The notes: generated by a model from the sequence alone, not told the origin. 32,000 bases of DNA from Caldivirga maquilingensis IC-167 (GCF_000018305.1 NC_009954.1:120001-152000); one strand, 5' to 3'; shown: positions 5,822 through 32,000, counted from the first letter of the stretch. Numbers and translations are program-made.

Positions 5822-5854
5822 GGCCACTAGGACTGGATTTGCGCCCACTACCCG
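5822..5854 (-). promoter_or_regulatory. 3' half of the 23S pre-rRNA processing stem (BHB-type)
   Basis: Sense CGGGUAGUGGGCGCAAAUCCAGUCCUAGUGGCC pairs with spacer sense GGUCACUAGGCUGGAGCGUUUACCCGCUACCCG (9082-9114). The pairing gives 11-bp and 10-bp helices around a short helix flanked by opposed bulges (UUUA and AAAU). Confidence 0.75.
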
Positions 5855-5855
5855 C

Positions 5856-9080
<3,225 letters not shown>

Positions 9081-9081
9081 A

Positions 9082-9145
9082 CGGGTAGCGGGTAAACGCT
9101 CCAGCCTAGTGACCGGAAAGAAGCCACCTTGAACTCCTAACCCCC
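9082..9145 (-). promoter_or_regulatory. 16S-23S spacer carrying two abutting processing-stem halves, with no spacer tRNA: the 23S 5' half (9082-9114) and the 16S 3' half (9115-9145)
   Basis: Spacer sense reads UUUUCGGGGGUUAGGAGUUCAAGGUGGCUUCUUUCC|GGUCACUAGGCUGGAGCGUUUACCCGCUACCCGU. The first part pairs with the leader (10856-10886) and the second with the trailer (5822-5854). The spacer is about 70 nt, too short and unsuitable for a tRNA. Confidence 0.75.
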
Positions 9146-9613
9146 GAAAAGGAGGTGATCCGGCCGCAGGTTCCCCTACGGCCACCTTGTTACGACTTCG
9201 CCCCCCTTGGGGACCCCCAACTCGACCCCCCAGTTACCCAGGGGGCCTCGTTAAGGATCCCCTCGGGTGGCGCGACGGGCGGTGTGTGCAAGGGGCAGGG
9301 ACGTATTCACCGCGCGTTGGTGACACGCGGTTACTAGGGATTCCACGTTCACGAGGGCGAGTTACAGCCCTCGATTCCTACTGGGGCGGGGTTTACGGGA
9401 TTGCCTCCCCCTTTCGGGGTCGGAACCCGCTGTCCCCGCCATTGCAGCTCGCGTGCAGCCCCGGGGTTTCGGGGCATACTGACCTGCCGTGGCCCCCTCC
9501 TTCCTCCGGCTTACGCCGGCAGTCCTCCCTGTGTGCCCCCCACCCCGAAGGGTAGGGTAGCAACAGGGAGCGGGGGTCGCGCTCGTTGCCAGACTTAACT
9601 GGACACCTCACGG

Positions 9614-9645
<32 letters not shown>

Positions 9646-9773
9646 AGCTCGTCCGGCAAGGTCGTTAGCCTGGCCTTCATCCTGCTGTCGCCCCGGGTGA
9701 GGTTTCCGGCGTTGACTCCAATTAAGCCGCAAGCTTCACCCCTTGTGGTGCCCCCCCGCCAATTCCTTTAAGT

Positions 9774-9913
9774 ATGCTGGGCGGCGGCCGTGCCGGGGTA
9801 AAGTGCCAGGGTAAAGTTGAGGATGTGAGTGCTAAAAAAGGAGGGTTCTGAGTTTACTGTACTTTGTTGGATATCTAGTTCCCGTCGGGGAACTCCGGCA
9901 CGGCCCGCCGCCT
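9774..9913 (-). other. 16S rRNA intron, 140 nt, with no ORF, inserted at about E. coli position 908
   Basis: It interrupts the universal GGCUGAAA|CUUAAAGGAAUUGGCGG. It is closed by a helix of about 17 bp (GGCGGCGGGCCGUGCCGG / CCGGCACGGCCGCCGCC) and has an AT-rich interior with a GUUCCC-CGAC-GGGAAC hairpin. The boundaries are ambiguous by 1 nt. Confidence 0.85.
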
Positions 9914-9922
9914 TTCAGCCTT

Positions 9923-9959
9923 CCGCCCCGGCCTGGGCTTGTGGCCCAGTGCCAGGTTT
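9923..9959 (-). other. 16S rRNA mini-intron, 37 nt, inserted at about E. coli position 901
   Basis: It interrupts AGUACGGCCGCAA|GGCUGAAA. Intron sense is ACCUGGCACUGGGCCACAAGCCCAGGCCGGGGCGGAA, with a CUGGGC-CACAA-GCCCAG hairpin. Removing it restores the universal sequence. The boundaries are ambiguous by 1-2 nt. Confidence 0.8.
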
Positions 9960-10855
9960 GCGGCCGTACTCCCCAGGCGGCGGGCTTAACGGCTTCCCTA
10001 CGCCACTGGGCGGGCACTAAGCCCACCCAACAGCTAGCCCGCATCGTTTACAGCTGGGACTACAGGGGTATCTAATCCCCTTTGCTCCCCCAGCTTTCGC
10101 CCCTCACCGTCGGGCGTGTTCCAGCCGAGCGCTTCCGCCACTGGTGGTCCTCCCGGGATTATCGGATTTCGCCCCTACCCCGGGAGTACCCTCGGCCTCT
10201 CCCACCCCCAAGCCCGGCAGTATCACCCCCGGCCCATGGGTTGAGCCCATGGATTTCAGGGGTGACTTACCGGGCCGGCTACGGGCGCTTTAGGCCCAGT
10301 AAACACCCCGACCACTCGCGGAGCTGGTATTACCGCGGCGGCTGACACCAGACTTGCCCCCCGCTTATTCCCCCAGCTACTTACACGGGGGAAAAGCCGC
10401 CCTCATCGGGCGGCACTCGGGGTGGCCCCGTCGCGGGTTACCGCATTGCGGAGTATTCGAGCCTGCTGCACCCCATAGGGCCTGGGCCCTTGTCTCAGTG
10501 CCCATCTCGGGGCTCCCGCTCTCACGGCCCCCACCCGTCTTCGGCCTGGCGGGCCGTTACCCCGCCAGCTACCATGATGGGCCGTAGCCCCATCCTCGGG
10601 CGAGCCGCGCCGGGTACCGGACGTGGCTCTTTTCGGGGAGGGGGCCTTCCAGCACCCTTCCCCTATGGGGGATTAGCCCCAGTTTCCCGGGGTTATCCCC
10701 CTCCCGAGGGTAGGTTGGCCACGTGTTACTGAGCCGTGCGCCGCACCCCAGCGGGTCCCTGGGGCGCTTGACTCGCATGGCTAAGCCCCACCCCGATAGC
10801 GGTCGGGTCCGGCAGGATCAACCGGTTTCAGGATGCGGCCGCAAGGCCGCTCCTG

Positions 10856-11087: not shown

Positions 11088-12089
11088 ATGAGTGTTAGGA
11101 TGATTGATGTTTCGGGGAAGGAGAGTGTTTACAGGGAGGCTTGGGTTGAGGGTTTGATTAGGCTTAGGCCGGAGTTGGCTAAGGTTATTGGTGATTCATG
11201 GTTCATTGGCCTAGGTAACTTAGCCTCATCAATCTCAGTGGCCGCTGTGGTTGCTGTTAAGAGGGCTTGGGAGTTCATTCCCCTTCTTCACCCAATACCA
11301 ATAACTAATGTTGAGGTTGAGTTGACTCATGGTTACGATTACGTTGGGTTGAGGGTTGGGGCTAAGACAGTTGCCCAGACTGGGGTTGAGATGGATGCCT
11401 TATTCGGGGCCTTAACCGGCCTTGTGACTGCTTGGAATGTTATTAAGGCTAGGCACTGCGTCTGTGGGCCTAACGGTGACTGTAGGGTTGTTGAGGAGGG
11501 TGAGGTGGGTGGATTATCCTTCAGTGGTGTGGGTGAGATTAAGGGTATTGAGGGGGTGAGGGTTATTAGGAAGATTAAGGGTGGGTTAAGCAGTGGTAAT
11601 GGTACTGAGGGCACTGGGTCGATTAACGTTAATAATGCCCCATCCCTAGTAACACTCTTCGACGCCTCTAATGAACCCACGTACATCGGGGAGGCTGAGG
11701 CAAGCGGCTTCATTAAGCTTAAGCCAAGCACGGTGGAGTTGATTAGGAGTGGGGGTGTTGAGAAGGGTGATGTCTTAGCCACCGCCCAATTAGCAGCCAT
11801 ATCAATGGCTAAGAGGGCTTGGGAACTCCTACCCCTTATTCACCAGAATTACTTAACCCACGTTGCCGTTGGCGCTGAGGTTAAGGATAATGGGGTTTAC
11901 GTTAAGGTAACCACTAGGAATGTTTCAAGGACGGGTTCAGCCATGGAGGCGCTAATGGCCACTGGGGCAGCGTTACTGACTATTTGGGATATGGTTAAGA
12001 AGTATGAGAAGGATGAGAATGGACAATACCCTGACACTGAGGTAAGCTTCATTAGGCTTGAGAAGGCTGTTAAGACGCCTATGCAGTAG
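11088..12089 (+). CDS. moaC: Tandem-duplicated (two-domain) cyclic pyranopterin monophosphate synthase, MoaC-MoaC fusion
   Basis: The ORF is 333 aa, about twice the normal MoaC length. The N-half has MIDVSGKESVYREA...IRLRPE, IPLLHPIP and TGVEMDAL. The C-half has KLKPSTVELIRSGGVEKGDVLATAQLAAI, LPLIHQ, TGSAMEAL and TIWDMVKKYEKDENGQYP. A Gly/Ser/Asn-rich linker lies between them. Confidence 0.85.
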   Translation: MSVRMIDVSGKESVYREAWVEGLIRLRPELAKVIGDSWFIGLGNLASSISVAAVVAVKRAWEFIPLLHPIPITNVEVELTHGYDYVGLRVGAKTVAQTGVEMDALFGALTGLVTAWNVIKARHCVCGPNGDCRVVEEGEVGGLSFSGVGEIKGIEGVRVIRKIKGGLSSGNGTEGTGSINVNNAPSLVTLFDASNEPTYIGEAEASGFIKLKPSTVELIRSGGVEKGDVLATAQLAAISMAKRAWELLPLIHQNYLTHVAVGAEVKDNGVYVKVTTRNVSRTGSAMEALMATGAALLTIWDMVKKYEKDENGQYPDTEVSFIRLEKAVKTPMQ

Positions 12090-19312: not shown

Positions 19313-20050
19313 TTACTTAACCTTACTTATCGGTAGTTTTCCACTTCTTAAATCATTAATTAGCTGGGTAAGCTCATTAATAGCTGACTCAAGTATTACC
19401 TTACCCTTCTCTACACTGGCTCTTGAGGGATAACCCTGAACAGCCTTAGTGTACTCTAGGGCGTAGGCGTCCTTACCATACACCCTGAACTTAACCTCAA
19501 CCCACTCATCAGCTGACCCATCCCTGGGAATCCACTTAACCAAGTGCGGGTAAGCCGCCCAAACCTCACTGGTCTCATCCTCTGCTGCATGACCCTCCGG
19601 GGTCTCTAGGACCTTCCTCCTAGCCTCCCTACCTAAGTCAATCCACCAGTTAACCAGGATTATGACTAGGTTAGTCTCCTTAGCTACATCCTTAGAGGCC
19701 ATGCTTAAAGCATCAACATTACCACCATGCCCATTAACCACCACTAGGTACTTCACCCCATTCCTAACAACCTCCCTGAATATTTCCCTATAAAGCATGT
19801 AAAGCACTTCATTGCTTATTGATATAGTGCCAGGGAACTTATCGAGGACATAAGTATTACCGTACCAAACAGTGGGGAGTAGTAGTGCATTCGTCCTCCT
19901 AGCAGCTTCCTCAGCTATGTAGGTTGCCATTAACGCATCAGTACCTAATGGTAAATGCGGCCCATGGGCCTCAACAATACCAGTGGGTAATATTGCTATT
20001 GTCTTATCAACCTTCTCGAAGTCAGGCCAGGTTAACTCCCACCAACGCAT
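19313..20050 (-). CDS. Creatininase-family amidohydrolase
   Basis: Family blocks are ILPTGIVEAHGPHLPLGTD, VVVNGHGGN and GHAAEDETS. The ORF is an intact 245 aa. Confidence 0.85.
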   Translation of the reverse strand: MRWWELTWPDFEKVDKTIAILPTGIVEAHGPHLPLGTDALMATYIAEEAARRTNALLLPTVWYGNTYVLDKFPGTISISNEVLYMLYREIFREVVRNGVKYLVVVNGHGGNVDALSMASKDVAKETNLVIILVNWWIDLGREARRKVLETPEGHAAEDETSEVWAAYPHLVKWIPRDGSADEWVEVKFRVYGKDAYALEYTKAVQGYPSRASVEKGKVILESAINELTQLINDLRSGKLPISKVK

Positions 20051-20052
20051 TA
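20030..20052. repeat. Left copy of a 23-nt perfect direct repeat spanning the creatininase start codon
   Basis: ggttaactcccaccaacgcatta is identical to 25825-25847. The flanking sequence on both sides is only about two-thirds identical by eye. Confidence 0.85.
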
Positions 20053-20660
20053 ACTGTACTTATCCACAAGCCCTTATAATATTAATCCCCCTGATTCATG
20101 CATAATTCCCTGAGTATCAGTATCCCCCTCATCATTTACCCAATAATATACTTCTGGTAAATTACACCGGGCCTCTTATCAATGCACTTAATCCTTATTA
20201 CCCTCCCTCCGTGGCGTTACCACTATATCCACTGGTGAGTTAAAGTACTCCAGGGTACTCATTATTCCCCACTTAATCTCCGCATAACCATGCAACTTAC
20301 CCAACCTCCTGCCTATGCGGATTCACTGTTATGGAGCTTATTATCACTAGGTCCATCTTCGGTAATTCCTGGGGTTATGGACACACACCTAAAGGCGCTG
20401 GCTATGGATCCAGGATTAAAACCCTCCCCTAATCCTTGGTACCGGCATTACCAGGGTCTTACCCATGCTTAATGCTAATTCCCTACACCTCCTCTGCGGC
20501 GAGCTTGAATTAATCTAATCACCCTTGGCGTTCTTAAATTCAAGGATTATTGATGCCAGGTTACAGTTAAGCATTGTCCGAACCCACGAAGTTAGGTATA
20601 TCCCTTAATATCCACGTGACGCATATTAAAACGTTTAAATTATGACTGACTAATCAATAC

Positions 20661-22022
20661 ATGGTGGATTTTGAATATATCGAGGAATTCATAGTAAACA
20701 GAATGAGGGAGACCAGGATCCCAGGACTTAGCGTGGGCATAGTCAAGGAAAATGAATTAATTTACGCAAGAGGCTTTGGGTTCAGGAACTTGGAAAGAGG
20801 ACTGCCGGCAACCCCCGGTACTATTTATGGTATCGGATCAGTAACTAAGAGCTTTACCGCATTGTCTATACTGAGGCTTGCCGAGGAGGGTAGGTTGAGT
20901 CTTGAGGATCCCGTGGATAAGTACATACAACTTAAGCTTAGGATCTCTGGAGAACCAGTCAAGATACATCACTTATTAACACACACCAGTGGAATACCCG
21001 CACTGGGTTATGCCGAGGCCTTCATAAACGGGGCCCTGGGGTTAGACAGTAACTGGTTACCGGTATCGTCGGCGGATGACGTCATGGTATTCATGAGGGG
21101 CTATGAGGACTGGGTTGTATCAAGGCCAGGTGAGAGGTTCTTTTACCTTAATGAAGGCTACGTACTCCTGGGCCACGTGGTGAGTAAAGTTAGCGGTATC
21201 CCTTACGAGACCTATGTTACGCAGCACATACTCAAGCCCCTTGGGATGAACAGAACATACTTCAACGCAGAGGAAGTCTCCAGGGACTCCGACGTGGCTA
21301 CACCGTACATACTGGATAGGAAGGGTAGGCATATACCCAGTAGGTTCCCCTTCGGGATAACGGCAGATGGTGGGTTGTTAAGCAACGTCATTGACATGTC
21401 TAGATACATCACAATGCTCATGAATAGAGGTGTGCTTAATGATGTGAGGATAGTGAGTAAGGATTACCTGGAACTTGCAGAGAGGAGGTACATCAACGTG
21501 CCCTGGAGGATAATTGGTGATGAGGGTTATGGCTATGGGTTGATAGTTAGTGAGAACTTCTTTGGTAGAAAGCTCGTGCAGCATAGTGGGAATGTCCTTG
21601 TTTACACAGCGTACATGGCCTACCTACCCAGTGATAGGTTAGGTGTGGTAATCATGAGTAACGCCGAGGGGTACTCCATGATGAAAATGGGCATTTACAT
21701 ATTAACAAGGCTCGTGGGCCACGAGCCCAGGGAACTATGGGCATTTAAACTAGAGGATACGTTGAGGAGACTGGAGGGTGTTTATGAAGCGTATAACGGT
21801 ACCGTGAGGGTTTCCGTGAAGGCACGGGGTGACTTCCTAGTGATTAAAAGCTCCACGAGGTACACCGAGGAATCAACAATACTAATCCCAGAGGAGGTGA
21901 GCGGTGACTATGCACGATTCTACACATTACTTTACGGAGCCAAGGTACCCGTGGAGTTCACTATAAAGGGAGGTAAAATATACATGACGTATGAAAGATA
22001 CGTATTCATAAAGAGAGAGTAA
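20661..22022 (+). CDS. Beta-lactamase-family serine hydrolase (class C / family VIII esterase / DD-peptidase-like)
   Basis: The S-x-x-K motif is GIGSVTKSF. The Y-x-N motif is FYLNEGY. An H-x-G-type third motif is VQHSGN. The ORF is 453 aa. Confidence 0.85.
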   Translation: MVDFEYIEEFIVNRMRETRIPGLSVGIVKENELIYARGFGFRNLERGLPATPGTIYGIGSVTKSFTALSILRLAEEGRLSLEDPVDKYIQLKLRISGEPVKIHHLLTHTSGIPALGYAEAFINGALGLDSNWLPVSSADDVMVFMRGYEDWVVSRPGERFFYLNEGYVLLGHVVSKVSGIPYETYVTQHILKPLGMNRTYFNAEEVSRDSDVATPYILDRKGRHIPSRFPFGITADGGLLSNVIDMSRYITMLMNRGVLNDVRIVSKDYLELAERRYINVPWRIIGDEGYGYGLIVSENFFGRKLVQHSGNVLVYTAYMAYLPSDRLGVVIMSNAEGYSMMKMGIYILTRLVGHEPRELWAFKLEDTLRRLEGVYEAYNGTVRVSVKARGDFLVIKSSTRYTEESTILIPEEVSGDYARFYTLLYGAKVPVEFTIKGGKIYMTYERYVFIKRE

Positions 22023-22094
22023 AGGAATGAGGTTATTCAATCACATAAAAATGAAAGAAAAATTATAAAGAATATAACAATACACAGTACTTGT

Positions 22095-23792
22095 ATGGCA
22101 GGAAAAATGCCCAATAAATGGGTAAGCCGCGTCAAGGCTCTGTTAGTGATTATACTGGTTATGGCAGTGGCTTCAATACTCATGTCACTACTCATTACTG
22201 TTAAGGCCCAACCCGCACCAATACAGTCAGTCAGGGTTAGCACTGGCGTGTTATCCTACTACGAATCACTACCATCCACTGCGCCGGGCATTGTAATTAG
22301 GGTTTACTTAATCAATGGTTCAACAATAAAACCCGCCAACGCCTTCGTAAGCATCTACGCAAACCTACCCAACGGAATCATACCCATGATTCACGCGTAC
22401 GGTAGCGTGGTAACACTACCCTTCAGTGATAATGCGTGGTCCTTCGTAATCAATAAGTGGCTGGGCACGGGCATGCCGGTGGGTAGCTACAATACATCAC
22501 TCCTAGTCTTCACAACATACGTGAGTGGTAATAAGTCCTGGATCGTACCCATGCTCATCCCATACAACGTTGGTTGGGTCCTAACCTCCAGGGGTGTTGG
22601 GATTACCACGGTTGGTTCGGCCACGCCCAGGTTCGTCGTGGCTGCCATATACATCAACGTGACTGGGATCAAGCCATTCAGTGTTGTGAGGGTGAGTGCC
22701 GTGGGTAAGCAAGACCCACAGATCCTCGGTACCTACGATGGCTACGTACTCTATAACTGCTCAGTAAGCGGGCCGCAACCAGAGATCCACGTATCATCAC
22801 CCTATGAGTTTATACCAGAGAGTACCTGCCTGGGTATAAATGGTTCATTACCACTGGTCTGGGTCACATGGAGTAATGGCGTTATACATAGGGATAGTAA
22901 CTTAGAGTTCTTTTTAGATGTTGGCTATATTGGTGTGATGCCCTGGGAGGCGGTGGCCACGGAATACGGTGAAGTAGGCCAGTCCTACAGTGCTAACGAG
23001 ACATGGGCACTGGCATTTCCAATATTCATGTCCTCCGTGAGGGGCCCTGGATCGTTTTACTGGGCATACAATGGTACGTGGGCGATTGTTAATTATAGTG
23101 TATGGTACGTGGACCCAATGACTGGCGTTACGGAGTATCTAGGTTCGGTGACGGTTTCCGAAGTCCTCTATGTACCCAGTCAGGAACCGGTGGAAGACGG
23201 TATTGATTATGGTAATGGGCCCATCAGCGTGTTGTACTATGGTGCAACCACCATATTTAATAAACTAATTGGTTACTCAGTATTGAATACATCATCAGTA
23301 ATTTACTACATAAACTTTATACCTAATCCATTGACCGGGGTTGAGGAGCTCTACGAGTGTAATGGCCCAGTCTCCATTGCATATATGGTGGGATCGAAGA
23401 CGGGGGCATTGTACTCCATTATCCTTGGCGGGGCCGAATCTGCCGTGAACACGGCCCAATTTGGCACGGGCCTTATGGCATATGTTGTGTCGCCACCATA
23501 TAATGCTATAGCAAATATTATATATGGTGCAATAGCAAATGAAATAACAGATATTATATTGACGGAGCTTGAAATAGCAGGTATCATACTACCACCATCG
23601 AACACTACCTTCATTCAAACATTTCTCGAGACGACTGGTATCAGTAACGGCACGCGCCTTTACATATCCGTCGTGATGACATCCAAACCCTTCGGGATAC
23701 CAACCTACGGCTTCATACTCAATACAACGAATTACTACGGAAATCCGCAGGAGTATACCTGCAGTTACGGTAAGGTGATGGTTATAGGTTAG
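22095..23792 (+). CDS. Large N-terminally anchored or secreted protein with many N-glycosylation sequons; function unknown
   Basis: 565-aa ORF with a basic N-terminus followed by a hydrophobic helix (RVKALLVIILVMAVASILMSLLI). It has at least 12 N-x-S/T sequons and a beta-rich, Tyr/Val/Asn-rich composition. I recognise no family motif. Confidence 0.65.
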   Translation: MAGKMPNKWVSRVKALLVIILVMAVASILMSLLITVKAQPAPIQSVRVSTGVLSYYESLPSTAPGIVIRVYLINGSTIKPANAFVSIYANLPNGIIPMIHAYGSVVTLPFSDNAWSFVINKWLGTGMPVGSYNTSLLVFTTYVSGNKSWIVPMLIPYNVGWVLTSRGVGITTVGSATPRFVVAAIYINVTGIKPFSVVRVSAVGKQDPQILGTYDGYVLYNCSVSGPQPEIHVSSPYEFIPESTCLGINGSLPLVWVTWSNGVIHRDSNLEFFLDVGYIGVMPWEAVATEYGEVGQSYSANETWALAFPIFMSSVRGPGSFYWAYNGTWAIVNYSVWYVDPMTGVTEYLGSVTVSEVLYVPSQEPVEDGIDYGNGPISVLYYGATTIFNKLIGYSVLNTSSVIYYINFIPNPLTGVEELYECNGPVSIAYMVGSKTGALYSIILGGAESAVNTAQFGTGLMAYVVSPPYNAIANIIYGAIANEITDIILTELEIAGIILPPSNTTFIQTFLETTGISNGTRLYISVVMTSKPFGIPTYGFILNTTNYYGNPQEYTCSYGKVMVIG

Positions 23793-24105
23793 GGGATAAT
23801 GACTTCATCGACCTATTACGCACTAATTCTCAAAATCCATGTGAAGTAGTAGGTCAATATTCTGCCCAAGCATTGGCTCATTGCCAATTTACCAAGCCCA
23901 TACCTAAGCTCATTGGTGTATTTATGAGGCCCCTTAATGAAAATACCCACACACTAGGGGCTTGGATTACAGTATTAATGATGGGGGAGCAACGATAAAG
24001 CATCATTAGTACTGCAAGAATCACACCACTCCACGTGGAGGATCCCAATGTGTAATGAATCTTTCAAGCGAAAGGCATAAAAACACGATTGGTACTTCAC
24101 ATACT

Positions 24106-24501
24106 ATGGAGTTGAGCGAGTTGATGAACCTGTTAATTAGTAGGGGTGTGGATTATGTGATGTCTCAATTACCAGGTTGGATTAGCAGGAGGGAGGTTTC
24201 AAGGGATGATGCAGAATTAATACTCATGTACGCAATTAGCAGTAGGCTTGATGAACTGGGCAAGAAGATTGATGATTTAAGTAAAAGAATCGATGACTTA
24301 AGTAAAAGAATTGACGTGAGATTCGATGAGTTGGGTAGGAAGATTGATGACCTACATAAGGAGGTTATTGATAGGTTAGACCTCATAAGTAATCAATTGA
24401 GGGTTCTGAATTCGAACATAGCAGCCACGTATGAGTTGACGTCAAAGGTTATGACTAAGTTAATGGAAAGCAGCCTAACACAGGCACCACCACGTTCATG
24501 A
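24106..24501 (+). CDS. Small coiled-coil protein containing a tandem heptad repeat; function unknown
   Basis: I prefer the ATG at 24106 (MELSELMNLL...) because a TATA-like gcataaaaac lies about 25 nt upstream. The central region is LDELGKKIDDLSKRIDDLSKRIDVRFDELGRKIDDLHKEVIDRLD. Confidence 0.6.
   Translation: MELSELMNLLISRGVDYVMSQLPGWISRREVSRDDAELILMYAISSRLDELGKKIDDLSKRIDDLSKRIDVRFDELGRKIDDLHKEVIDRLDLISNQLRVLNSNIAATYELTSKVMTKLMESSLTQAPPRS
24268..24309 (+). repeat. Two tandem 21-bp units (19/21 identical) encoding IDDLSKR-IDDLSKR, with a degenerate third unit following
   Basis: attgatgatttaagtaaaaga is followed by atcgatgacttaagtaaaaga, read directly from the sequence. Confidence 0.8.
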
Positions 24502-24815
24502 TGAATTACAAAAGCTGATTATACACTTTTTCATAACACAATCTAGGCCTATGTAAGCGATAAGCCAGTAAGTCAAGCCAGCCAGTGAGCCATACTGTAC
24601 GTTAGTGCGCACCCAAGCCTTCATGAAGGCCTCCGAGGATTGCAATGGCATTGCCAATGTTGAAGCTATAGACACTGGCTACCAATAAGCCAGCAACATA
24701 TCCGCTTAATTTATTATTCACAACCTGAGCATGTAGGTGTCGCTAATCGTTAATAAGAATCACTTGGCGCCATGGCCACAAAGTATTTATAGGAGTTAAG
24801 TAGGAAAATTAATTA

Positions 24816-25391
24816 ATGGGCTTAAGCACGTGGGTGCTTAATAGGATCACTTGGTTTTATGTGGGCTTCGTCTTCGTAAGCTTCGCATTACTCCTCTGGC
24901 TCTTCATAAGTGGTTACTTAACAATATACACGGGTCTACCATTGCCATACTTCATGCTCTACACAACGGGCAACGTAGCAATCACCGCCTTAGTCACCAT
25001 GATCGTAATCCTAGGCCTATATGTATACCTGGGCATTGTGCTAATACGCAGCGGCTTTAGTAGAGGTTACGTGCCGATAGGGTTCGTGGCATCAATAATA
25101 ATAGGCATGGTCCTAATCCTAACCGGGCAGTTCGTAGCCGCTGTGGTGTTCTTAATAATTGCCCTAGTATTACAAATCGGTAGCTACGCCGTGTTAACAA
25201 GCATAGCGACGAATAAGGTCTCCATGTACATGTGGTTAATAGGCGCATTACTGATATTGGCTGCGGCAATACTCACAATGATTAATAGGCTCCTCGTGAA
25301 CTACATAGAGGCAGTCATACAGTCACTATCAATACTAGCTTGTACAGTTGAGGTATGGTCAATAATGGGTAAACGAGACCGAATACGGTGA
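24816..25391 (+). CDS. Small polytopic membrane protein (about 6 TM); function unknown
   Basis: The 191-aa ORF is nearly all hydrophobic helices. A TATA-like aagtatttatagg lies about 25 nt upstream of the ATG. Confidence 0.65.
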   Translation: MGLSTWVLNRITWFYVGFVFVSFALLLWLFISGYLTIYTGLPLPYFMLYTTGNVAITALVTMIVILGLYVYLGIVLIRSGFSRGYVPIGFVASIIIGMVLILTGQFVAAVVFLIIALVLQIGSYAVLTSIATNKVSMYMWLIGALLILAAAILTMINRLLVNYIEAVIQSLSILACTVEVWSIMGKRDRIR

Positions 25392-25603
25392 TACTGGTGA
25401 TAAGTGTTGAGTTGATAGCTATGGAATTATGATTCGTCGAGTCATGATGTAAGGCCTTCTTAGCTGTGCATTAGGTAATGTGCTGGTGCTTGAATTAGGG
25501 AACGGTGGATACGTAATAAGCGCAGCAACCTTCACTGGCTATGGTACCCTCCATATCACTAATCATTTTATAAAAGTATAGTATATTACAGTTCCTTAGA
25601 ATA

Positions 25604-25845
25604 TTATTCGTACACATGTATAAATCGGTACTTATATTTAAGAAGTCGCACAACGCTTATTGATTTTAATTTCACAATGTAGTAATGCATTGACTCCCTG
25701 GCTTCCTCAACTATGTAGGTTACTATTAATGCATTAGTACTGAGGAGTGGGTGTGGCTCATGGACCTCAATTATACTTGTTGGTAGTAGGGCTATGATTT
25801 TATTGACCTTCTTAAACTCAGCTAGGTTAACTCCCACCAACGCAT
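25604..25845 (-). pseudogene. Decayed duplicate of the 5' end (promoter plus about 80 codons) of the creatininase-family gene
   Basis: The ATG at rc 25843-25845 gives MRWWELT, identical to 19313-20050, and then an in-frame TAG (rc of 25822-25824). A 1-nt deletion follows. After the frameshift the translation still aligns: AEFKKVNKIIALLPTSIIEVHEPHPLLSTNALIVTYIVEEA against PDFEKVDKTIAILPTGIVEAHGPHLPLGTDALMATYIAEEA. An internal deletion comes next. Promoter-region similarity extends to about 25890. Confidence 0.8.
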
Positions 25846-25847
25846 TA
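25825..25847. repeat. Right copy of the 23-nt perfect direct repeat
   Basis: Identical to 20030-20052 and in the same orientation, 5795 bp away. Confidence 0.85.
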
Positions 25848-25890
25848 TTAAGTCTTCTAAGTAAGCATTTAAGCTATTAATCAAGGAGTC

Positions 25891-26436
25891 TTAATCACTT
25901 AATTCATAAAGATCCTTATTCCAAGGCATTCTGGGTAGAAGCGCCATGTACACCGCCTCAGTATTCAAGTTAATCCTCTTAATTAACCCCCTGCTTAATA
26001 GGCCAATGAACCCGATTCCCTTACCTGCATTGGGAACCCCATAATACTTCTCAACAACATCATTAAGCTCCTTACCAGTCATTAACTCCCTCATAAATGC
26101 TGGCGGTATCATGAATGCTGGACTTAGCCCCAATGTGATTAAGCCTTTTCTATCAATCACCGCAGCCACTGTTACATCAAAATTCACATTGAAGGCACTT
26201 AACATTAATACACCGGCTTCAATACCGATGCCGTAGGTTGAGTCCTTAATTGAGCTAAGGGCATGCCTAGCCCTAACTACTGCACCATTAACAGTCGCCT
26301 CAAGACCCATTGGCTCCGGAGGTATGCCAGGTGGTGGATCCACCGCCTCAACTGTACCATTAATGTTAAGAATCCTTAAAGCCTCCTCAACAGCCTTAAC
26401 CTTACTTGGATTCCTTGAAGCCAAGGCCACCTTCAT
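25891..26436 (-). CDS. Inosine/xanthosine triphosphatase-like non-canonical purine NTPase (YjjX / DUF84 family)
   Basis: The N-terminus is MKVALASRNPSKVKAVEEAL. The blocks GIPPEPMGLEATVNGAVVRARHAL and YGIGIEAGV match the family pattern as I recall it from E. coli YjjX. A TATA-like aaatttaaagaag lies about 30 nt upstream on the minus strand. Confidence 0.8.
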   Translation of the reverse strand: MKVALASRNPSKVKAVEEALRILNINGTVEAVDPPPGIPPEPMGLEATVNGAVVRARHALSSIKDSTYGIGIEAGVLMLSAFNVNFDVTVAAVIDRKGLITLGLSPAFMIPPAFMRELMTGKELNDVVEKYYGVPNAGKGIGFIGLLSRGLIKRINLNTEAVYMALLPRMPWNKDLYELSD

Positions 26437-27207
26437 AAGCTTAATACTAGTTACCTTACCTTAACTTCTTTAAATTTGACCCACATTATTTAGGATTCAC
26501 TATTCACAAACATCATCTAGTTTACCGTTACTGGGTCAATCGAACACAAGACTAATGCCCTGTACCTCAAGTAAGGTATCGTTATACGATTGAGGACTCC
26601 TTAAAAGAATGCAACGCATCAATGTGCTACGTGTATCACGGTTAAGTGCGGAAAACCAAGAACACCATAATAGAAATGGGTGGTGGATCTTGTTCTTTAC
26701 GATGTTTTAAATTGATTTTCATTAATTACATGCTACATATCTCTGGATCCCATGTAAATGAGAATAATTGGATCGAAGGCCCAATTCATAATACACTGCT
26801 GAATAAATGAGACAGTATGAGAAACACCTACCGGCAATAAAGTAATAATAATAATAAAGGCAGTAAATCAATAAATCAACCCCTAGGACGAGGAGACCAG
26901 TAGGTATCTGCCCTTAATGGCCTTTTCCTAGGAATTATCCACAGTCCTATGAGCGATGAAGACACAATACTCCTCTGTCACGTAGTTTTTGTGAAGAATA
27001 AAAATTAAGAATTATTATAATTTAAAAACATAGTTAAAAATCATACTAATGTATTTAACTATAGCAATAAAAATAAAAGCGAACCAATCTATTACTCTCT
27101 AAGAAAATAGTTTAACCGTAAAATTTAAATAAAATAAGGTAAGGGCCTTTTTAAGGTACAATGTATTAAGCAGTGCAAATGTGCCGGCTCCATAATGATG
27201 GCTTAGT

Positions 27208-28002
27208 ATGAGTGCATTTAAAATCTTCCTTCTTATTTCCATACCCCTCATTTCATTATCCCTAATCCTAATATACGGCACGGCATTGATTGCACCCTCC
27301 ATAGTAAGGATCTCCACGCCTCAGAGCATGCCTTATGCCCAAGCTAGTAATGTCATTGTTAATGCCAGTGGGGTTTATGTGATCGTGAGTGTGGTAAATA
27401 ATGGTTTTAACTTCACGCCAACGAGCGGCTGGGTATTAATTGCGAACACTGGTGAGTTGGGTAATTTAACCATAATAAATGGAACACTGGCTGTGTCCAG
27501 GATGGGGCTGGAGCCTGGTTACGTGGTAATGAGCAGTGCAGGTGTGAGAGGGGTGGTCAAGGGTTACCTAGATGGGGCGCCTGCTGAGATAGCCTTCTTC
27601 AGCATAGTCCCAATTCACGTGGCCAATACGGTGGCCTTATCAAGCGTGAATTATAGTAATTGCGTACTAGTGCTTATCTTTAATGTATCATCAATAGTCC
27701 CCGTTAGGTTGTGGGGCATTGTCAACATGAGCCTATACACAGTGGTAGGTCATGAGTATGTCCTTAACACCATGAATGTGGTGTTTAATGAGAGTGTTTA
27801 TGTACCCGCTGGTGATCATACCGTTAACATAACAATCCCCATAATGCCATTCTATGACGTGGACAGGTTTATCTACGTGTATGATTGCAACCTTAAGGGT
27901 GATGTGGCGTATGCGCTCTACTTACCAATAAGCATTACTTATTATTACCCCACCGTGAACCAAACCGTGAACACCGTTATCTTCAAGTCCTTCACCGGGT
28001 GA
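27208..28002 (+). CDS. Envelope operon gene 1: N-terminally anchored extracellular beta-rich protein with many N-glycosylation sequons
   Basis: 264-aa ORF with an N-terminal hydrophobic helix (FKIFLLISIPLISLSLILIYGTALI). It has about 10 N-x-S/T sequons. Its stop TGA (28000-28002) overlaps the GTG of the next ORF (GTGA). Confidence 0.7.
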   Translation: MSAFKIFLLISIPLISLSLILIYGTALIAPSIVRISTPQSMPYAQASNVIVNASGVYVIVSVVNNGFNFTPTSGWVLIANTGELGNLTIINGTLAVSRMGLEPGYVVMSSAGVRGVVKGYLDGAPAEIAFFSIVPIHVANTVALSSVNYSNCVLVLIFNVSSIVPVRLWGIVNMSLYTVVGHEYVLNTMNVVFNESVYVPAGDHTVNITIPIMPFYDVDRFIYVYDCNLKGDVAYALYLPISITYYYPTVNQTVNTVIFKSFTG

Positions 28003-28778
28003 CTTCCATGAGACTCGAGGTCATGATTCAAGTGGTTCTGGCATTAGCCTTCGTGGTCTCCTGGTTCCTGCTGCCGATTTATGGCATTACAGGCCCTGGG
28101 TTAGCCATGGTTCTAACACCCGTGGGTTACGTGGTGGATTTCCTAGGCCTGAGATACCTCGTGGTTCCACCAACAATATTCGCAATATGGCTCTTTGCCC
28201 TAACGTCATCACTAATACCCATTGTTTGGAGGAGCACTAGATACCCACTCTACCTCTCACTACTCCTCGCTGTTCTCTCGATGACCATGCTTACTGACAC
28301 AATTCTCTTCCAGTGGCGATACATGACGGTGAGGGGCTACGTAATACAACCAACACCCACGGGTTACATCTATGTTCAACTACACCACACGCCAAGCCTG
28401 AGTCTGCCGTTTTACATACTGGTGATTTACCTAGTACTAACGCTTGTCAATACCGTGACCAGGGCTAAATGGTTGAGGTTTAGGGAGTGGAGTATTGTTG
28501 AGGTTTACCAAACAAGGGGCACTATGACTGCCATTAAGGAGTCCCTAAGGAGGCTTGGGATACCTTATGAGGAGTTTGATGATGGTATTAGGGTTGGTGA
28601 CTTAATTATTAAGGAGGTTCATGGCATGATAACAATAAGCAGGGTAGGCAGAAACCCCATGGCAACCGATGAGATTCAAGGGTTAAGTCCTGAGGAGGCT
28701 ATTGCCGTAGTGATAACACACGCAGTTCAGTATGCATTTAAGACTGGGTCCAGGGTGGTTGAGTATGAAGGTGAGTAA
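27999..28778 (+). CDS. Envelope operon gene 2: polytopic membrane protein (about 5 TM) with a soluble C-terminal domain of about 95 aa
   Basis: 259-aa ORF. The start is either the GTG at 27999 (4-nt overlap with gene 1) or the ATG at 28008. Hydrophobic helices run through about aa 160. A charged soluble tail then follows (RFREWSIVEVYQTRGTMTAIKESLRRLGIPYEEFDDG...). Confidence 0.7.
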   Translation: MTSMRLEVMIQVVLALAFVVSWFLLPIYGITGPGLAMVLTPVGYVVDFLGLRYLVVPPTIFAIWLFALTSSLIPIVWRSTRYPLYLSLLLAVLSMTMLTDTILFQWRYMTVRGYVIQPTPTGYIYVQLHHTPSLSLPFYILVIYLVLTLVNTVTRAKWLRFREWSIVEVYQTRGTMTAIKESLRRLGIPYEEFDDGIRVGDLIIKEVHGMITISRVGRNPMATDEIQGLSPEEAIAVVITHAVQYAFKTGSRVVEYEGE

Positions 28779-30192
28779 ACGGGTAGTAGCCATGGCAATA
28801 CTACTGGCCTTAGTCATGGTGCCTTCATCATTAGTCATCGTTAGTGATGTAATAAATACGTACAGGGGCAATATGAGGATTAGCACCACACAGCCGATTA
28901 AGGTAACGCCAGGCTCCTTCCTTTACCAAACACCATGCGGTCAACTCCTAATACAAAGCCAGTGGGCGCCAACTGGCACGGGCTTCAGCGGCTCCATGAA
29001 CCTACCCCTAATAACATTGAGCACAACTAATGGCTACAGGTTGATGATGACGCCAATACCCATGTTCTCACTCACCACATCAACAAGCGGCGTGTTAACC
29101 CTGGGAATAAACACCAACCCCTACATAGCCTCAGCATACCTAAACATAGGCGGAACCACACAGCAGGTATACCCAGGAACCGGCACATGGAGCCTAACCA
29201 CGGGCTCCTACACAGCAAACCTAACGGGACTCACACTAACCACCCCAGTCACGGGCACGGTAACACTAAGCGGTAATTACAACTTCACACCAACCACAGG
29301 CGTCACGTTCACGTACACCTTCACGGAAACCCTAAACCTAAAGCAGCCATCCTTCAACATAATGAACCTGTTAAACGGTTACCAGAACTGGTACGTGCCG
29401 CACGTGTACCAGGGCGATTATCAAGGCACCCGCACTTATCAATGGCCGGTTTATTACCCACTCAGCGCAGCACCACAGTACTGGGCACCAATATCCACGG
29501 GCATTAACCAACCAGTCCTAATGATGGTGCAGGCTCGGCAATGGTCCGCCGGCGCCATGTTCTGGAGTGAAGCCTACACCAGTGGTCAGTCAGTCACAAT
29601 AACAATACTGGGCACCTACTCCAGTGGCACATCAAACCCAGCGGATGGCTATGAATTCTACTTCTTCATAGTTCCAAATGGATGGGCCATATCCTCTTCT
29701 TCCAATTACTCAATACCTTACTCAGTATCCTCATCACAAATTGGTACTCAGGTATCACCTGTGCAGGGCGAGGTTATCCTACCCGTCTCTGTATATAATA
29801 CGTGGTACGTAGTGGTTCAGTGGGACCCGTACTGGCAGTACGGCTATACTGCGAGCGGTTATACTGGGCAGTGGAATGTCTGGGCTGTAAGCTATACCCC
29901 CTCCCGGCTAAGGATTAACTCGGTGAATGGTGTGGGCAGTGGTTACTTTAAGCCAAACCCAGGGGATTACATATGCGTTAGCGTCACGTATAATGCAACT
30001 ACGAACACCGTGAGCGGCATTGCCGTGGACCTAAACACGGGCGCCTACGCCATACTACCTCCCATAAACCTAGCTAGCTTTTCGAATTTTAAGCCGCCAA
30101 ACAGTGGTACCTACGTATTTGGCGTAGCTGGCAACACGGGAGGCGCCTATGCCAATTGGGCAATACTAGCCGTTAATTACACGGCGCGTTAG
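28765..30192 (+). CDS. Envelope operon gene 3: N-anchored Thr/Tyr-rich extracellular protein with a C-terminal legume-lectin-like (ConA-like jelly-roll) domain
   Basis: I prefer the ATG at 28765 (MKVSKRVVAMAILLALVMV...), which overlaps the end of gene 2 by 14 nt. The middle is Thr-rich and beta-rich. The C-terminal half carries four blocks in the L-type-lectin order: NPADGYEFYFFIVP, YVVVQWDPYW, ICVSVTYNATTNTVSGIAVDL and TYVFGVAGNTGGAYANWAIL. Confidence 0.7.
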   Translation: MKVSKRVVAMAILLALVMVPSSLVIVSDVINTYRGNMRISTTQPIKVTPGSFLYQTPCGQLLIQSQWAPTGTGFSGSMNLPLITLSTTNGYRLMMTPIPMFSLTTSTSGVLTLGINTNPYIASAYLNIGGTTQQVYPGTGTWSLTTGSYTANLTGLTLTTPVTGTVTLSGNYNFTPTTGVTFTYTFTETLNLKQPSFNIMNLLNGYQNWYVPHVYQGDYQGTRTYQWPVYYPLSAAPQYWAPISTGINQPVLMMVQARQWSAGAMFWSEAYTSGQSVTITILGTYSSGTSNPADGYEFYFFIVPNGWAISSSSNYSIPYSVSSSQIGTQVSPVQGEVILPVSVYNTWYVVVQWDPYWQYGYTASGYTGQWNVWAVSYTPSRLRINSVNGVGSGYFKPNPGDYICVSVTYNATTNTVSGIAVDLNTGAYAILPPINLASFSNFKPPNSGTYVFGVAGNTGGAYANWAILAVNYTAR

Positions 30193-30589
30193 GTACTCAG
30201 CAGATCCACTGTACATTACGGGTTAGTTAACCCTCAGCAGGCTTATCAACAGAAGTAATTACGTTAAGAACTCATTATTTATTCATACCTCGCTTTTCAG
30301 GCTAATTTCACACGCATTTTTCTACATCGTCATATTAGCCGTGGCAGCAGTACCCTCAACCATTGAGGATGAGGAAGTAAGGGGCTGCAGGTTCATGAAA
30401 CTAGGGATGGAGATTAAGGTTGAAAATAATACTTGCTAAACCTAGGTTTGGTTGACTATGAACTTTGGGCCACACTGCCTGCTGGGTCTTATGCTCCTAG
30501 GAATGCCTCAAGGACCAGGTAGCATTATGGTTATTGCAAGCATGTAACTAAATTCAGTACACCTGTGTTACCATGTTGTTTACTGGCCT

Positions 30590-30971
30590 GTGGACAACAC
30601 CACGGAACTATACATAAGTAGGGTGGATGCAAAGAGGGGTATTGCTAGGCTTATGGAATTCATGAACATAGAAATAACCGAAGTAATGAATAATGAGGGT
30701 AAGGCAGGATTCCATAGCAGGAATCTAGAGAGCATTATGAAGCTCAATATACCAATTAATACAGTGGGTGCCCAGGGACTTCATGAGAATAACCGTAAGG
30801 AGAGCCGAGGGACTGACCCTAGTTAATGATTAGGGGTTAGTGGAGCCTGGCGTTAGGGATGTTAGGGTTAATGTCATTATTCAGTTCATGAGATATGGCT
30901 TCGTTAAGAAGGTGAATACCGAGAGAATGAATGGTGGCAAGGTTGTTGAATTCATTTACATGCATAATTAA
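30590..30971 (+). pseudogene. gltX: Frameshifted, stop-interrupted fragment of a glutamyl-tRNA synthetase C-terminal region
   Basis: Frame A gives ELYISRVDAKRGIARLMEFMNIEITEV...AGFHSRNLESIMKLNIP. After a +1 shift the reading is LIQWVPRDFMRITVRRAEGLTLVND*GLVEPGVRDVRVNVIIQFMRYGFVKKV...EFIYMHN*. The RLM..N.EI, FHS, IQWVP and QF.RYGFV blocks follow the archaeal GluRS C-terminal order. No catalytic domain lies upstream. The 5' limit is uncertain. Confidence 0.65.
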
Positions 30972-31131
30972 TCCTTAATGTCCCTCAGGTGGAACCCTGT
31001 GGATAAGTACCTAAACAATAACCTGTAATGCATAATGGAGATTAGGGTTCCTGAATTCCTCACTAAGGGTATTTAGCTAACTCATCCATGGAGAAAATAT
31101 TATTAAATGCTATTTCAACAGTTAATGCATC

Positions 31132-32000
31132 ATGAGGATCTCTACAAGATCCTCAATGTTCCCGGGATCTAAGATAAGGGCTATTAATGAGGAGGTAGTT
31201 AGGCTTTCAAGCCGTGGTATTAAGATTTATGAGTTCCATATAGGGCAGCCGGGTTTACCACCAAGTAAGGACTTGCTTCTTGAGTTTACCAAGGAATTAC
31301 TTGAGAAACCCTTTGAGCTAAGCATGTACACGCCCAGTAGCGGCATTGATGAGTTGAGGGTCATGATTGCCAATGACTATAGTAAGTACTCTGGGGTCAA
31401 TGTTACGCCCAGCGATGTATCTGTCACGGCAGGGTCCGCAGAGGCACTACTTGCATTGTTCATGGCCGTAATAGATGAGGGTGATGAGGTTGTCCTCACG
31501 GACCCCACGTACTTAATGTACGAACCTGTAATTAGATTTCTTGGTGGCAAGGTTATTAAAGTAAGGGCCAGGGAGGAGCTGGGCTGGTTACCCAGTGAGG
31601 ATGATTTGAGGAGTGCCGTGGGCAGGAAAACTAAAGCCATAATCCTGGTTAATCCAGACAATCCCACGGGTAGGGTACTTGGTGAAAAGATCATTAAATT
31701 GGCTGTGGACTTGGCGAAGGACTATGATGCCTATGTGATCTACGATGAGGCATATAAGCATCTTTACTACGAGGGAAACCATACATATGCCCTTGGGCTT
31801 GATATGGAGCATGTGATTGCCGTAAATACCTTCTCCAAGGACCCCGCAATGCCTGGTTGGAGGCTCGGCTACGTGGTTACTCATGAGGAGTTTATCAAGG
31901 TTTTTAATAGGGTTAAGCAGTACACGAATCTAAACCCACCAACACCATCCCAGTACGCAGGGCTACTTTACTTAACTAAGTACAAGGAGAGGTACCTAAG
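31132..32000 (+). CDS. Class I/II PLP-dependent aminotransferase (aspartate aminotransferase-like), 3'-truncated by the window edge
   Basis: The frame is open from ATG 31132 to the window end, so it is absent from the ORF track. Motifs are VNPDNPTG, YDEAY and NTFSKDPAMPGWRLGY (PLP-lysine region). A TATA-like aaatattattaaatg lies about 25 nt upstream. Confidence 0.85.
   Translation, partial: MRISTRSSMFPGSKIRAINEEVVRLSSRGIKIYEFHIGQPGLPPSKDLLLEFTKELLEKPFELSMYTPSSGIDELRVMIANDYSKYSGVNVTPSDVSVTAGSAEALLALFMAVIDEGDEVVLTDPTYLMYEPVIRFLGGKVIKVRAREELGWLPSEDDLRSAVGRKTKAIILVNPDNPTGRVLGEKIIKLAVDLAKDYDAYVIYDEAYKHLYYEGNHTYALGLDMEHVIAVNTFSKDPAMPGWRLGYVVTHEEFIKVFNRVKQYTNLNPPTPSQYAGLLYLTKYKERYL

Follow-up and report, generated by a model that had tools for sequence, protein, structure and literature searches.

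A foreign 5.8-kb segment at the creatininase gene start of Caldivirga maquilingensis IC-167 and its possible insertion by homologous crossover without an integrase

The subject of this study is a 5.8-kb segment of the Caldivirga maquilingensis IC-167 genome that lies between two direct copies of the start of a creatininase-family gene. It was analyzed within a window of 32,000 nt (the whole stretch of DNA under study, NC_009954.1:120001-152000), and coordinates are positions in this window unless the genome is named. Several described modes of insertion leave comparable traces. In Campbell-type single-crossover ('pop-in') insertion, homologous direct repeats flank the insert, each of them is a hybrid, and the crossover falls within the longest identity; no site-specific recombinase is needed, and recombination between the repeats restores the empty site. 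In homology-facilitated illegitimate recombination, described in naturally transformable bacteria, the homologous anchor is one-sided and the far end is joined without homology. The integrase-borne elements of archaea, of the SSV, pNOB8, and pTN3/pT26-2 types, have terminal direct repeats, insert at gene ends, and reconstitute the gene, which in pTN3-like elements is expressed from the element promoter (PMC8371274).

The C. maquilingensis locus agrees with Campbell-type insertion in the features named above, the hybrid make-up of the repeats being traced for three of their four arms, and recombination between its repeats would restore the very empty site that is found in congeners. It differs in that the event was a natural one, crossed a genus boundary, and had only about 24 nt of perfect identity to work with, inside about 230 nt of 70-75% homology; in that the presumed circle would be a chromosomal fragment and not a plasmid; and in that one junction has an unexplained inverted piece of 80 nt. 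With the archaeal elements the locus shares terminal direct repeats, insertion at a gene end, and a reconstituted gene, which here too may use an imported promoter. Unlike them, it is without an integrase, a split integrase gene, or backbone genes, its target is the start of a protein gene and not a tRNA, and the homology of its repeats goes far beyond the core. As in homology-facilitated illegitimate recombination, foreign DNA was acquired via a single conserved gene segment as anchor, but that process usually replaces or deletes recipient DNA, whereas here there are two copies of the 5' region, the second taken from the recipient or from the donor. We regard the segment as an old, decayed islet of Vulcanisaeta-like origin, probably inserted by a homologous Campbell-type crossover of a circularized donor fragment with no integrase involved, and assign to this reading a probability of roughly 0.58. 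The locus is a clear and fairly ordinary, textbook-style case of gene transfer, not a new kind of system.

The 23-mer GGTTAACTCCCACCAACGCATTA, which an initial annotation of the window had singled out as a perfect direct repeat, has exactly two occurrences in the window, at 20030-20052 and at 25825-25847 of the plus strand, and none in 100 dinucleotide-preserving shuffles. The full identical run is in fact 24 nt long (20029-20052 and 25824-25847, in direct orientation). Read on the minus strand, this core is TA-ATG-CGT-TGG-TGG-GAG-TTA-ACC-T, the start of the creatininase-family gene 19313-20050. The repeats and the sequences that adjoin them are the following.

19313-20050, minus strand: intact creatininase-family gene (PF02633, E 1.5e-60 in Pfam), its body of Caldivirga type up to the core
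20029-20052, plus strand: left copy of the 24-nt core, start codon and first 7 codons (MRWWELT), the putative crossover site
20053-20115, minus strand: putative imported upstream and promoter region, V. thermophila-like by upstream-region alignment, now before the intact creatininase gene
25660-25823, minus strand: dead 5' part of a creatininase gene, comprising codons 8 to about 62 and interrupted by an in-frame TAG and by deletions of 1, 4, and 7 nt
25824-25847, plus strand: right copy of the 24-nt core
25848-25890, minus strand: native spacer and promoter between yjjX and creatininase, orthologous to the spacer of two congeners and now stranded before the dead copy
25891-26436, minus strand: yjjX-type nucleoside triphosphatase (NTPase) gene, the chromosomal right flank (PF01931), 86-91% identical in the same two congeners, where it adjoins creatininase

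Beyond the core, the two copies remain alignable over some 45 nt before the gene and some 185 nt within it, an extended homology of the kind that a homologous insertion leaves. On the coding side, 19905-20025 matches 25701-25821 with 74% identity over 121 nt (75% over 169 nt in another alignment), fading near 25660. The flanks had been estimated by eye to be alignable and about two-thirds identical; this is confirmed for the coding side, with a somewhat higher identity, while the upstream regions are only weakly alike. Their weak likeness is, as far as the alignments tell, old cross-genus homology of creatininase promoters. The right-hand copy had been considered dead because of a TAG codon, a 1-nt deletion, and an internal deletion, and so it is: TGG is changed to TAG right behind the core, and in addition to the 1-nt deletion there are gaps of 4 and 7 nt.

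The initial annotation had set a discrete core of identity against the uniform identity of an ordinary tandem pair of paralogues. When match and mismatch columns of the alignment were shuffled, a run of at least 24 identical positions appeared in only 1.1% of the trials (P = 0.011 under uniform divergence); thus the identity is not uniform and peaks in a core. The same peak is present in the gene family itself. Among ten orthologues, the first 50 nt or so form the most conserved part of the creatininase gene, and the core belongs to the most conserved 24-mers; the longest exact matches of the C. maquilingensis gene to its counterparts in two Vulcanisaeta genomes, V. thermophila (G018) and G020, fall exactly at the TGGTGGGAGTTAAC motif. 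Being the best-conserved stretch across genera, the core is the expected crossover point for a homology-driven insertion, and since it coincides with the conservation peak, its perfection needs no dedicated attachment (att) site.

For comparison we used five other Caldivirga genomes (G001-G005), the C. maquilingensis genome (G000) being a single contig of 2,077,567 bp. An empty site, that is, creatininase adjoining yjjX with a single copy of the repeat, had been named as the expected state of related genomes, and it was found in two of them. In G001 and G004, the yjjX-type gene stands directly upstream of creatininase, separated from it by 48-60 nt, with one copy of the core; on the other side of creatininase follow the same M20 peptidase, helix-turn-helix (HTH), and topoisomerase genes as in C. 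maquilingensis. If the two C. maquilingensis flanks are joined (26436 to 25848 followed by 20052 to 19313), the resulting 1330 nt align with each congener in one high-scoring segment pair, with 83.9% identity and 2 gaps in G001 and 82.3% identity and 3 gaps in G004. By these alignments the segment is a true insertion that duplicated the 5' end of its target, and it is present at this site in none of the five congeners, the G002 contig being short at the creatininase locus. No exact-pattern match to the dead-copy junction was obtained in 185,579 species genomes or in Joint Genome Institute (JGI) metagenomes.

Of the four arms of the two repeats, three can be assigned to an origin, and these give the repeats a hybrid character. 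The 60 nt upstream of the left core are like the creatininase upstream region of V. thermophila and unlike the yjjX-creatininase spacer of G001 and G004. Some 26-32 nt upstream of 20050, this putative imported region has a TATA-like box. The coding sequence right after the left core is native, with 39 of 40 nt identical to G001, and the intact gene as a whole is 83% identical to that of G001 at the nucleotide level and 88% at the protein level, as against 73% nucleotide identity to V. thermophila. The region upstream of the right copy is native as well: the 43-nt spacer 25848-25890 has ...CTTAATAATG in common with the spacer of G001 and G004, and all three end in CTTAATA-ATG. Judged from these similarities, the left repeat is a foreign promoter joined to a native gene, and the right repeat is a native promoter joined to a dead fragment.

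The genes between the repeats had been described, correctly, as a beta-lactamase-family hydrolase, a 565-aa glycoprotein, a coiled-coil protein, a small membrane protein, and short decayed remnants of open reading frames (ORFs). To this list we can add that the remnants at 20088-20599 are those of a cyclo-ligase gene. The closest relatives of the cargo are found in V. thermophila, at a creatininase-linked locus (locus 1) and at a separate one (locus 2); the surface-protein, coiled-coil, and membrane genes are below called the trio.

20088-20599, minus strand: pseudogene of the 5-formyltetrahydrofolate cyclo-ligase family (tblastn with the V. thermophila 253-aa protein, E 2e-22, three frames)
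20661-22022, plus strand: Pab87/CubicO-type serine hydrolase with a beta-lactamase fold and an octamerization domain (PF00144, E 4.9e-69; PF13969, E 3.9e-36)
22095-23792, plus strand: predicted N-terminally anchored, beta-rich surface protein of 565 aa, 85% identical to a V. thermophila protein
24055-24501, plus strand: coiled-coil protein, likely true start 24106, 82% identical to the product of the neighboring gene in V. thermophila
24816-25391, plus strand: polytopic membrane protein of 191 aa, 82% identical to the product of the neighboring gene in V. thermophila
25421-25537, plus strand: conserved non-coding tail of the trio and last stretch collinear with V. thermophila locus 2, 76% identity over 118 nt
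25550-25630, minus strand: 'X', a single-copy stretch of about 80 nt in the presumed circle-closure interval, 80% identical over 51 nt (E 1e-6) to V. thermophila locus 1

The insert is collinear with donor DNA beside the anchor. In V. thermophila locus 1, creatininase is followed by the gene of the 253-aa cyclo-ligase, whose product matches PF01812, and then by the Pab87-type hydrolase; the C. maquilingensis pseudogene, disrupted by many stops and frameshifts, occupies the same place as the cyclo-ligase gene. An intact paralogue of the latter is present in C. maquilingensis at genome positions 1430005-1430718. The hydrolase is 76% identical to that of V. thermophila, 68-69% to those of other Vulcanisaeta, and 64-65% to the Caldivirga copies. 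In the hydrolase tree it pairs with V. thermophila (support 100/99) inside the Vulcanisaeta group (87/93), apart from the Caldivirga clade (100/100). G001 and G004 hold a Caldivirga-type hydrolase at another locus, the flanks of which map to the C. maquilingensis genome near 1.385-1.392 Mb, where no hydrolase copy or remnant was found. From tree and synteny the hydrolase is thus best described as a xenologous replacement: a Vulcanisaeta-type xenologue is present, and the native Caldivirga copy was apparently lost. The remaining Vulcanisaeta were rejected as a source of the donor-type arrangement, because their hydrolase belongs to another conserved gene order (methyltransferase, Lactamase_B, hydrolase, cupin), and the creatininase-linked order of the hydrolase appears to be specific to the V. 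thermophila line and the C. maquilingensis segment. The hydrolase has both domains of the self-compartmentalizing Pab87/CubicO serine hydrolases of Pyrococcus abyssi at full length; this likeness is one of family assignment alone.

The trio points to the same donor genus. The next best matches of the 565-aa protein after V. thermophila are to V. souniana (61%) and to Caldivirga metagenome-assembled genomes (about 45%); it has no Pfam or PHROG match, and its AlphaFold2 (AF2) model is of low confidence (pLDDT, the predicted local distance difference test, 46). In V. thermophila locus 2 (L055 9815-13161), a homologue of the 565-aa protein is followed by the same coiled-coil and membrane genes. 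Identity to this locus is 82-85% for the proteins of the trio and 81-85% at the nucleotide level, the latter holding across 21929-25537 and ending at 25537, whereas genes around locus 2 are only 31-60% identical to their best C. maquilingensis matches. This difference marks the trio as foreign to C. maquilingensis. It is absent from this site in all five congeners and absent altogether from four of them. The membrane gene is also 61-65% identical to genes of V. distributa and V. moutnovskia that lie within a few kb of their creatininase genes, next to distant relatives of the 565-aa protein (25-27% identity); in V. distributa, the coiled-coil gene is near creatininase as well. The non-coding tail 25421-25537, for which Rfam gave no match, may be a regulatory region or a small RNA.

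The first 95 nt of V. thermophila locus 2 are what is left of the 3' end of a hydrolase gene, now decayed; therefore the adjacency of hydrolase and trio predates both copies. The trio lies there between a CbiA-like gene and an oligopeptide ATP-binding cassette (ABC) operon, about 4 kb from an rRNA operon. Three other Vulcanisaeta keep the Lhr-CbiA neighbors without the trio within 1.5 kb, and to judge by this comparison the block seems to have reached locus 2 by a further transfer of its own. The block of locus 2 is nearer to the C. maquilingensis copy than to V. thermophila's own locus 1. Within the coiled-coil gene, 21-nt heptad-coding repeats extend over 24244-24360, and exactly there the orthologue of V. 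thermophila differs by a 15-residue indel, a pattern consistent with slippage.

The course of events that we favor would be as follows. In the ancestor, yjjX would have stood directly upstream of creatininase, as it does in two congeners today. A chromosomal fragment would have been taken up from a Vulcanisaeta lineage close to V. thermophila, reaching from about codon 62 of creatininase over the donor promoter, the cyclo-ligase gene, and the Pab87-type hydrolase to the trio, and this fragment would have closed into a circle. One Campbell-type crossover inside the longest identity of donor and recipient, the 24 nt coding for MRWWELT, with the resident stretch of M20, creatininase, native promoter, and yjjX as partner, would then have produced the order native body, core, donor promoter, cargo, donor 5' fragment, core, and native promoter. 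The left hybrid (donor promoter, core, and native gene) would have stayed intact and is presumably driven by the imported promoter; the right hybrid (native promoter, core, and donor 5' fragment) would have been dead. Afterwards the redundant imports, cyclo-ligase and creatininase fragment, would have decayed, and the hydrolase would have been kept while the native hydrolase was lost.

Several observations weigh against this course of events. V. thermophila has hydrolase and trio at two loci about 280 kb apart, and the full order of the segment was seen in no single extant genome examined. The hydrolase is more diverged from V. thermophila (76% nucleotide identity) than the trio (85%); because of this, and because the trio locus of V. 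thermophila looks inserted itself, more than one transfer is likely on the sequence comparison. The dead fragment, examined by pairwise identities, three-taxon site patterns, a maximum-likelihood (ML) tree, and approximately unbiased (AU) tests, could be attributed to neither donor nor recipient: it is 65-71% identical to every orthologue, too short and too decayed, and the gene tree is poorly resolved. The ML tree puts this short, decayed fragment weakly with the native copy (57/67), and in the AU test of donor versus native placement neither was rejected (p = 0.50 and 0.13). An untouched 24-nt core would be somewhat unlikely if the dead copy had decayed freely after the insertion. In addition, composition is not clearly foreign. 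A comparison of k-mer usage with the flanks had been suggested earlier, and it shows the segment to be only mildly atypical (tetranucleotide distance at the 93.5th percentile, GC 0.444 versus 0.431); this is uninformative, because the donor family has a similar GC content and the event is old. Finally, the counterpart of stretch X in V. thermophila locus 1, immediately downstream of the hydrolase gene, has the opposite orientation, and a simple circle does not predict an inversion.

Stretch X was also considered as the terminus of a repeated element and rejected as such: it is single-copy and, among 41 genomes, present in C. maquilingensis and V. thermophila only.

The same foreign insert may have come with a dead fragment that is native. 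A linear donor molecule would have been anchored by homology at the gene start and its far end joined illegitimately in a sister copy of the recipient gene. Such unequal exchange or homology-facilitated illegitimate recombination would have duplicated the first 185 nt of the native gene, and the duplicate would then have decayed. Though unlikely, this explanation has several observations on its side. The highest identity of the dead fragment (73%) is to the intact C. maquilingensis copy, and the tree places it weakly with the C. maquilingensis and G001 genes; one homologous and one illegitimate join are required, the same as in the circle model; and an inverted X at the far junction suits a messy illegitimate join. 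However, the clean 24-nt run is improbable if all of the 29% divergence arose after the duplication (P = 0.011 anywhere in the alignment). The fragment has 13 states in common with Vulcanisaeta G009, compared with 14 in common with the intact copy, and its GC-ward differences, such as CCCTACTACC and GAGTTT, match other lineages. Moreover, homology-facilitated illegitimate recombination normally deletes recipient DNA and does not duplicate it, which counts against a native origin of the fragment.

The initial annotation interpreted the repeats as attL and attR of an integrated element that carried its own copy of the target. In its full form this explanation takes the segment for what is left of a site-specific integrative element, either a plasmid or a provirus, whose attP included a creatininase 5' fragment, with the 24-mer as att core and with integrase and backbone genes deleted later. 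We consider it quite unlikely. A perfect direct repeat does bound the segment at a gene end, the target gene is reconstituted behind an incoming promoter, and relatives show an empty site with a single copy of the core, although an empty site fits every insertion model alike. Elements of the pTN3 type integrate in a comparable way into the 5' half of tRNA genes, and both att sites inside protein genes and restored genes driven by an element promoter are known in archaea (PMC8371274). Creatininase is interrupted in V. souniana too, by 11 kb, and V. thermophila locus 2 apparently received the trio in a second move.

On the other side, as had been noted before, no integrase is visible: no recombinase, replication, virion, or conjugation domain was detected in any ORF of the segment or of the window, and the two ends of the segment are formed by the cyclo-ligase pseudogene and the creatininase fragment, with no integrase or integrase fragment at either. 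The tyrosine recombinase family PF00589 had no match in the whole 2.08-Mb genome, with matches in 14 of 14 control genomes, very degraded remnants being beyond the reach of these searches. There is no tRNA gene in the window. The cargo has no relatives among mobile elements either. Within the segment PHROGs gave only generic hydrolase and coiled-coil matches, and the 565-aa protein had no match in 50,697 phage records and 72,556 plasmids (tblastn) or in a scan of IMG/VR; a viral or plasmid origin of the cargo was rejected on these grounds. The left part of the segment is the ordinary chromosomal creatininase neighborhood of the donor genus, the core is the conservation peak of the gene rather than a site dedicated to recognition, and in V. 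souniana creatininase is interrupted elsewhere, at codons 156-162, by an insertion that lacks repeats. Of the earlier interpretation, what stands is an island, truly foreign and inserted into an empty site; the att-site part is not supported, and nothing in the C. maquilingensis locus requires an integrase-borne element.

A further possibility, that the arrangement is ancestral to C. maquilingensis, G001, and G004 and the empty sites are secondary precise deletions between the repeats, is improbable. Precisely the sequence of G001 and G004 would be regained if the repeats recombined with each other, and, the three genomes being about equidistant, the tree polarizes the event weakly. However, one gain, at least two losses, and loss of the native hydrolase only in C. 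maquilingensis are then needed, compared with one gain and one loss for a gain in the C. maquilingensis line, which makes the ancestral arrangement less parsimonious, and the distribution of the trio among the congeners speaks against it as well. Even so, timing alone would change, and an insertion would still be needed. A tandem paralogue pair or chance repeat without any insertion has next to nothing in its favor beyond the homology of the two copies and is refuted by the shuffled sequences, the non-uniform identity, the different origin of the upstream arms, the empty site, and the foreign intervening genes.

The locus is a rare natural example, from a hyperthermophilic crenarchaeon, in which junctions, empty site, and donor gene order are all kept, so that the sequence allows one to follow the mechanics of a transfer between genera. 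To judge by this case, some 24 nt of identical sequence in a conserved gene start may suffice for 5.8 kb of foreign DNA to become anchored with no integrase. The transfer had three consequences: a Pab87-type hydrolase was replaced by a xenologue, a fast-evolving surface-protein module was imported, and a housekeeping-type gene presumably exchanged its promoter. For annotation, the case is a warning not to take a perfect repeat at a gene end for an att site on that ground alone.

Only tentatively, and with little expectation that it will hold, we mention that the block of hydrolase, surface-protein, coiled-coil, and membrane genes could be a recurrently mobile, integrase-less cassette that passes between Caldivirga and Vulcanisaeta and anchors on short conserved gene segments. 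The idea arises because the trio is found at the C. maquilingensis creatininase gene and again, with a hydrolase stub, beside Lhr-CbiA in V. thermophila, and because the V. souniana creatininase gene is interrupted. If true, hyperthermophilic Thermoproteales, which seem to have no tyrosine recombinases, would exchange genes by a route that has not been described so far.

The interrupted gene of V. souniana (G012, L034 2814-3065 and 14127-14594) has about 11 kb inserted between codons 156 and 162 and lacks about 18 nt of its own sequence. The insert carries a radical-SAM/SPASM gene and ORFs without a Pfam match, including one of 539 aa that ends at the junction; it has no terminal repeats and no homologues in C. 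maquilingensis.

The neighborhood of creatininase varies in other genomes, too. In the more distant Caldivirga G003 (L024 10157-12199) and G005 (L026 8673-10712), creatininase is inverted relative to the M20 gene and has different flanking genes, without yjjX nearby; thus its borders are rearrangement breakpoints in several lineages. To the right of yjjX in the window (26437-32000), an AT-rich gap is followed by three envelope ORFs that have no counterpart beside yjjX in G001 and G004, where a gene of 461-463 aa follows instead. Therefore the right border of yjjX is also a breakpoint in C. maquilingensis.

The absence of a PF00589 match means that not even an Xer-type recombinase was detected in C. 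maquilingensis by this family. A sequence of about 90 nt beside the native hydrolase gene of G004 (L051, about 11176-11274) is repeated many times in the C. maquilingensis genome with 73-92% identity, its copies including those at 117141, 294707, 1041084, 1256387, 1453265, and 1913614, among others; it may be a short interspersed repeat or an element resembling miniature inverted-repeat transposable elements (MITEs). Finally, in the rRNA operon of the window (5848-10828), the large-subunit (LSU) match spans 3241 nt compared with 2987 in the Rfam model, and the small-subunit (SSU) match 1679 compared with 1478, which suggests insertions or introns in both rRNA genes.

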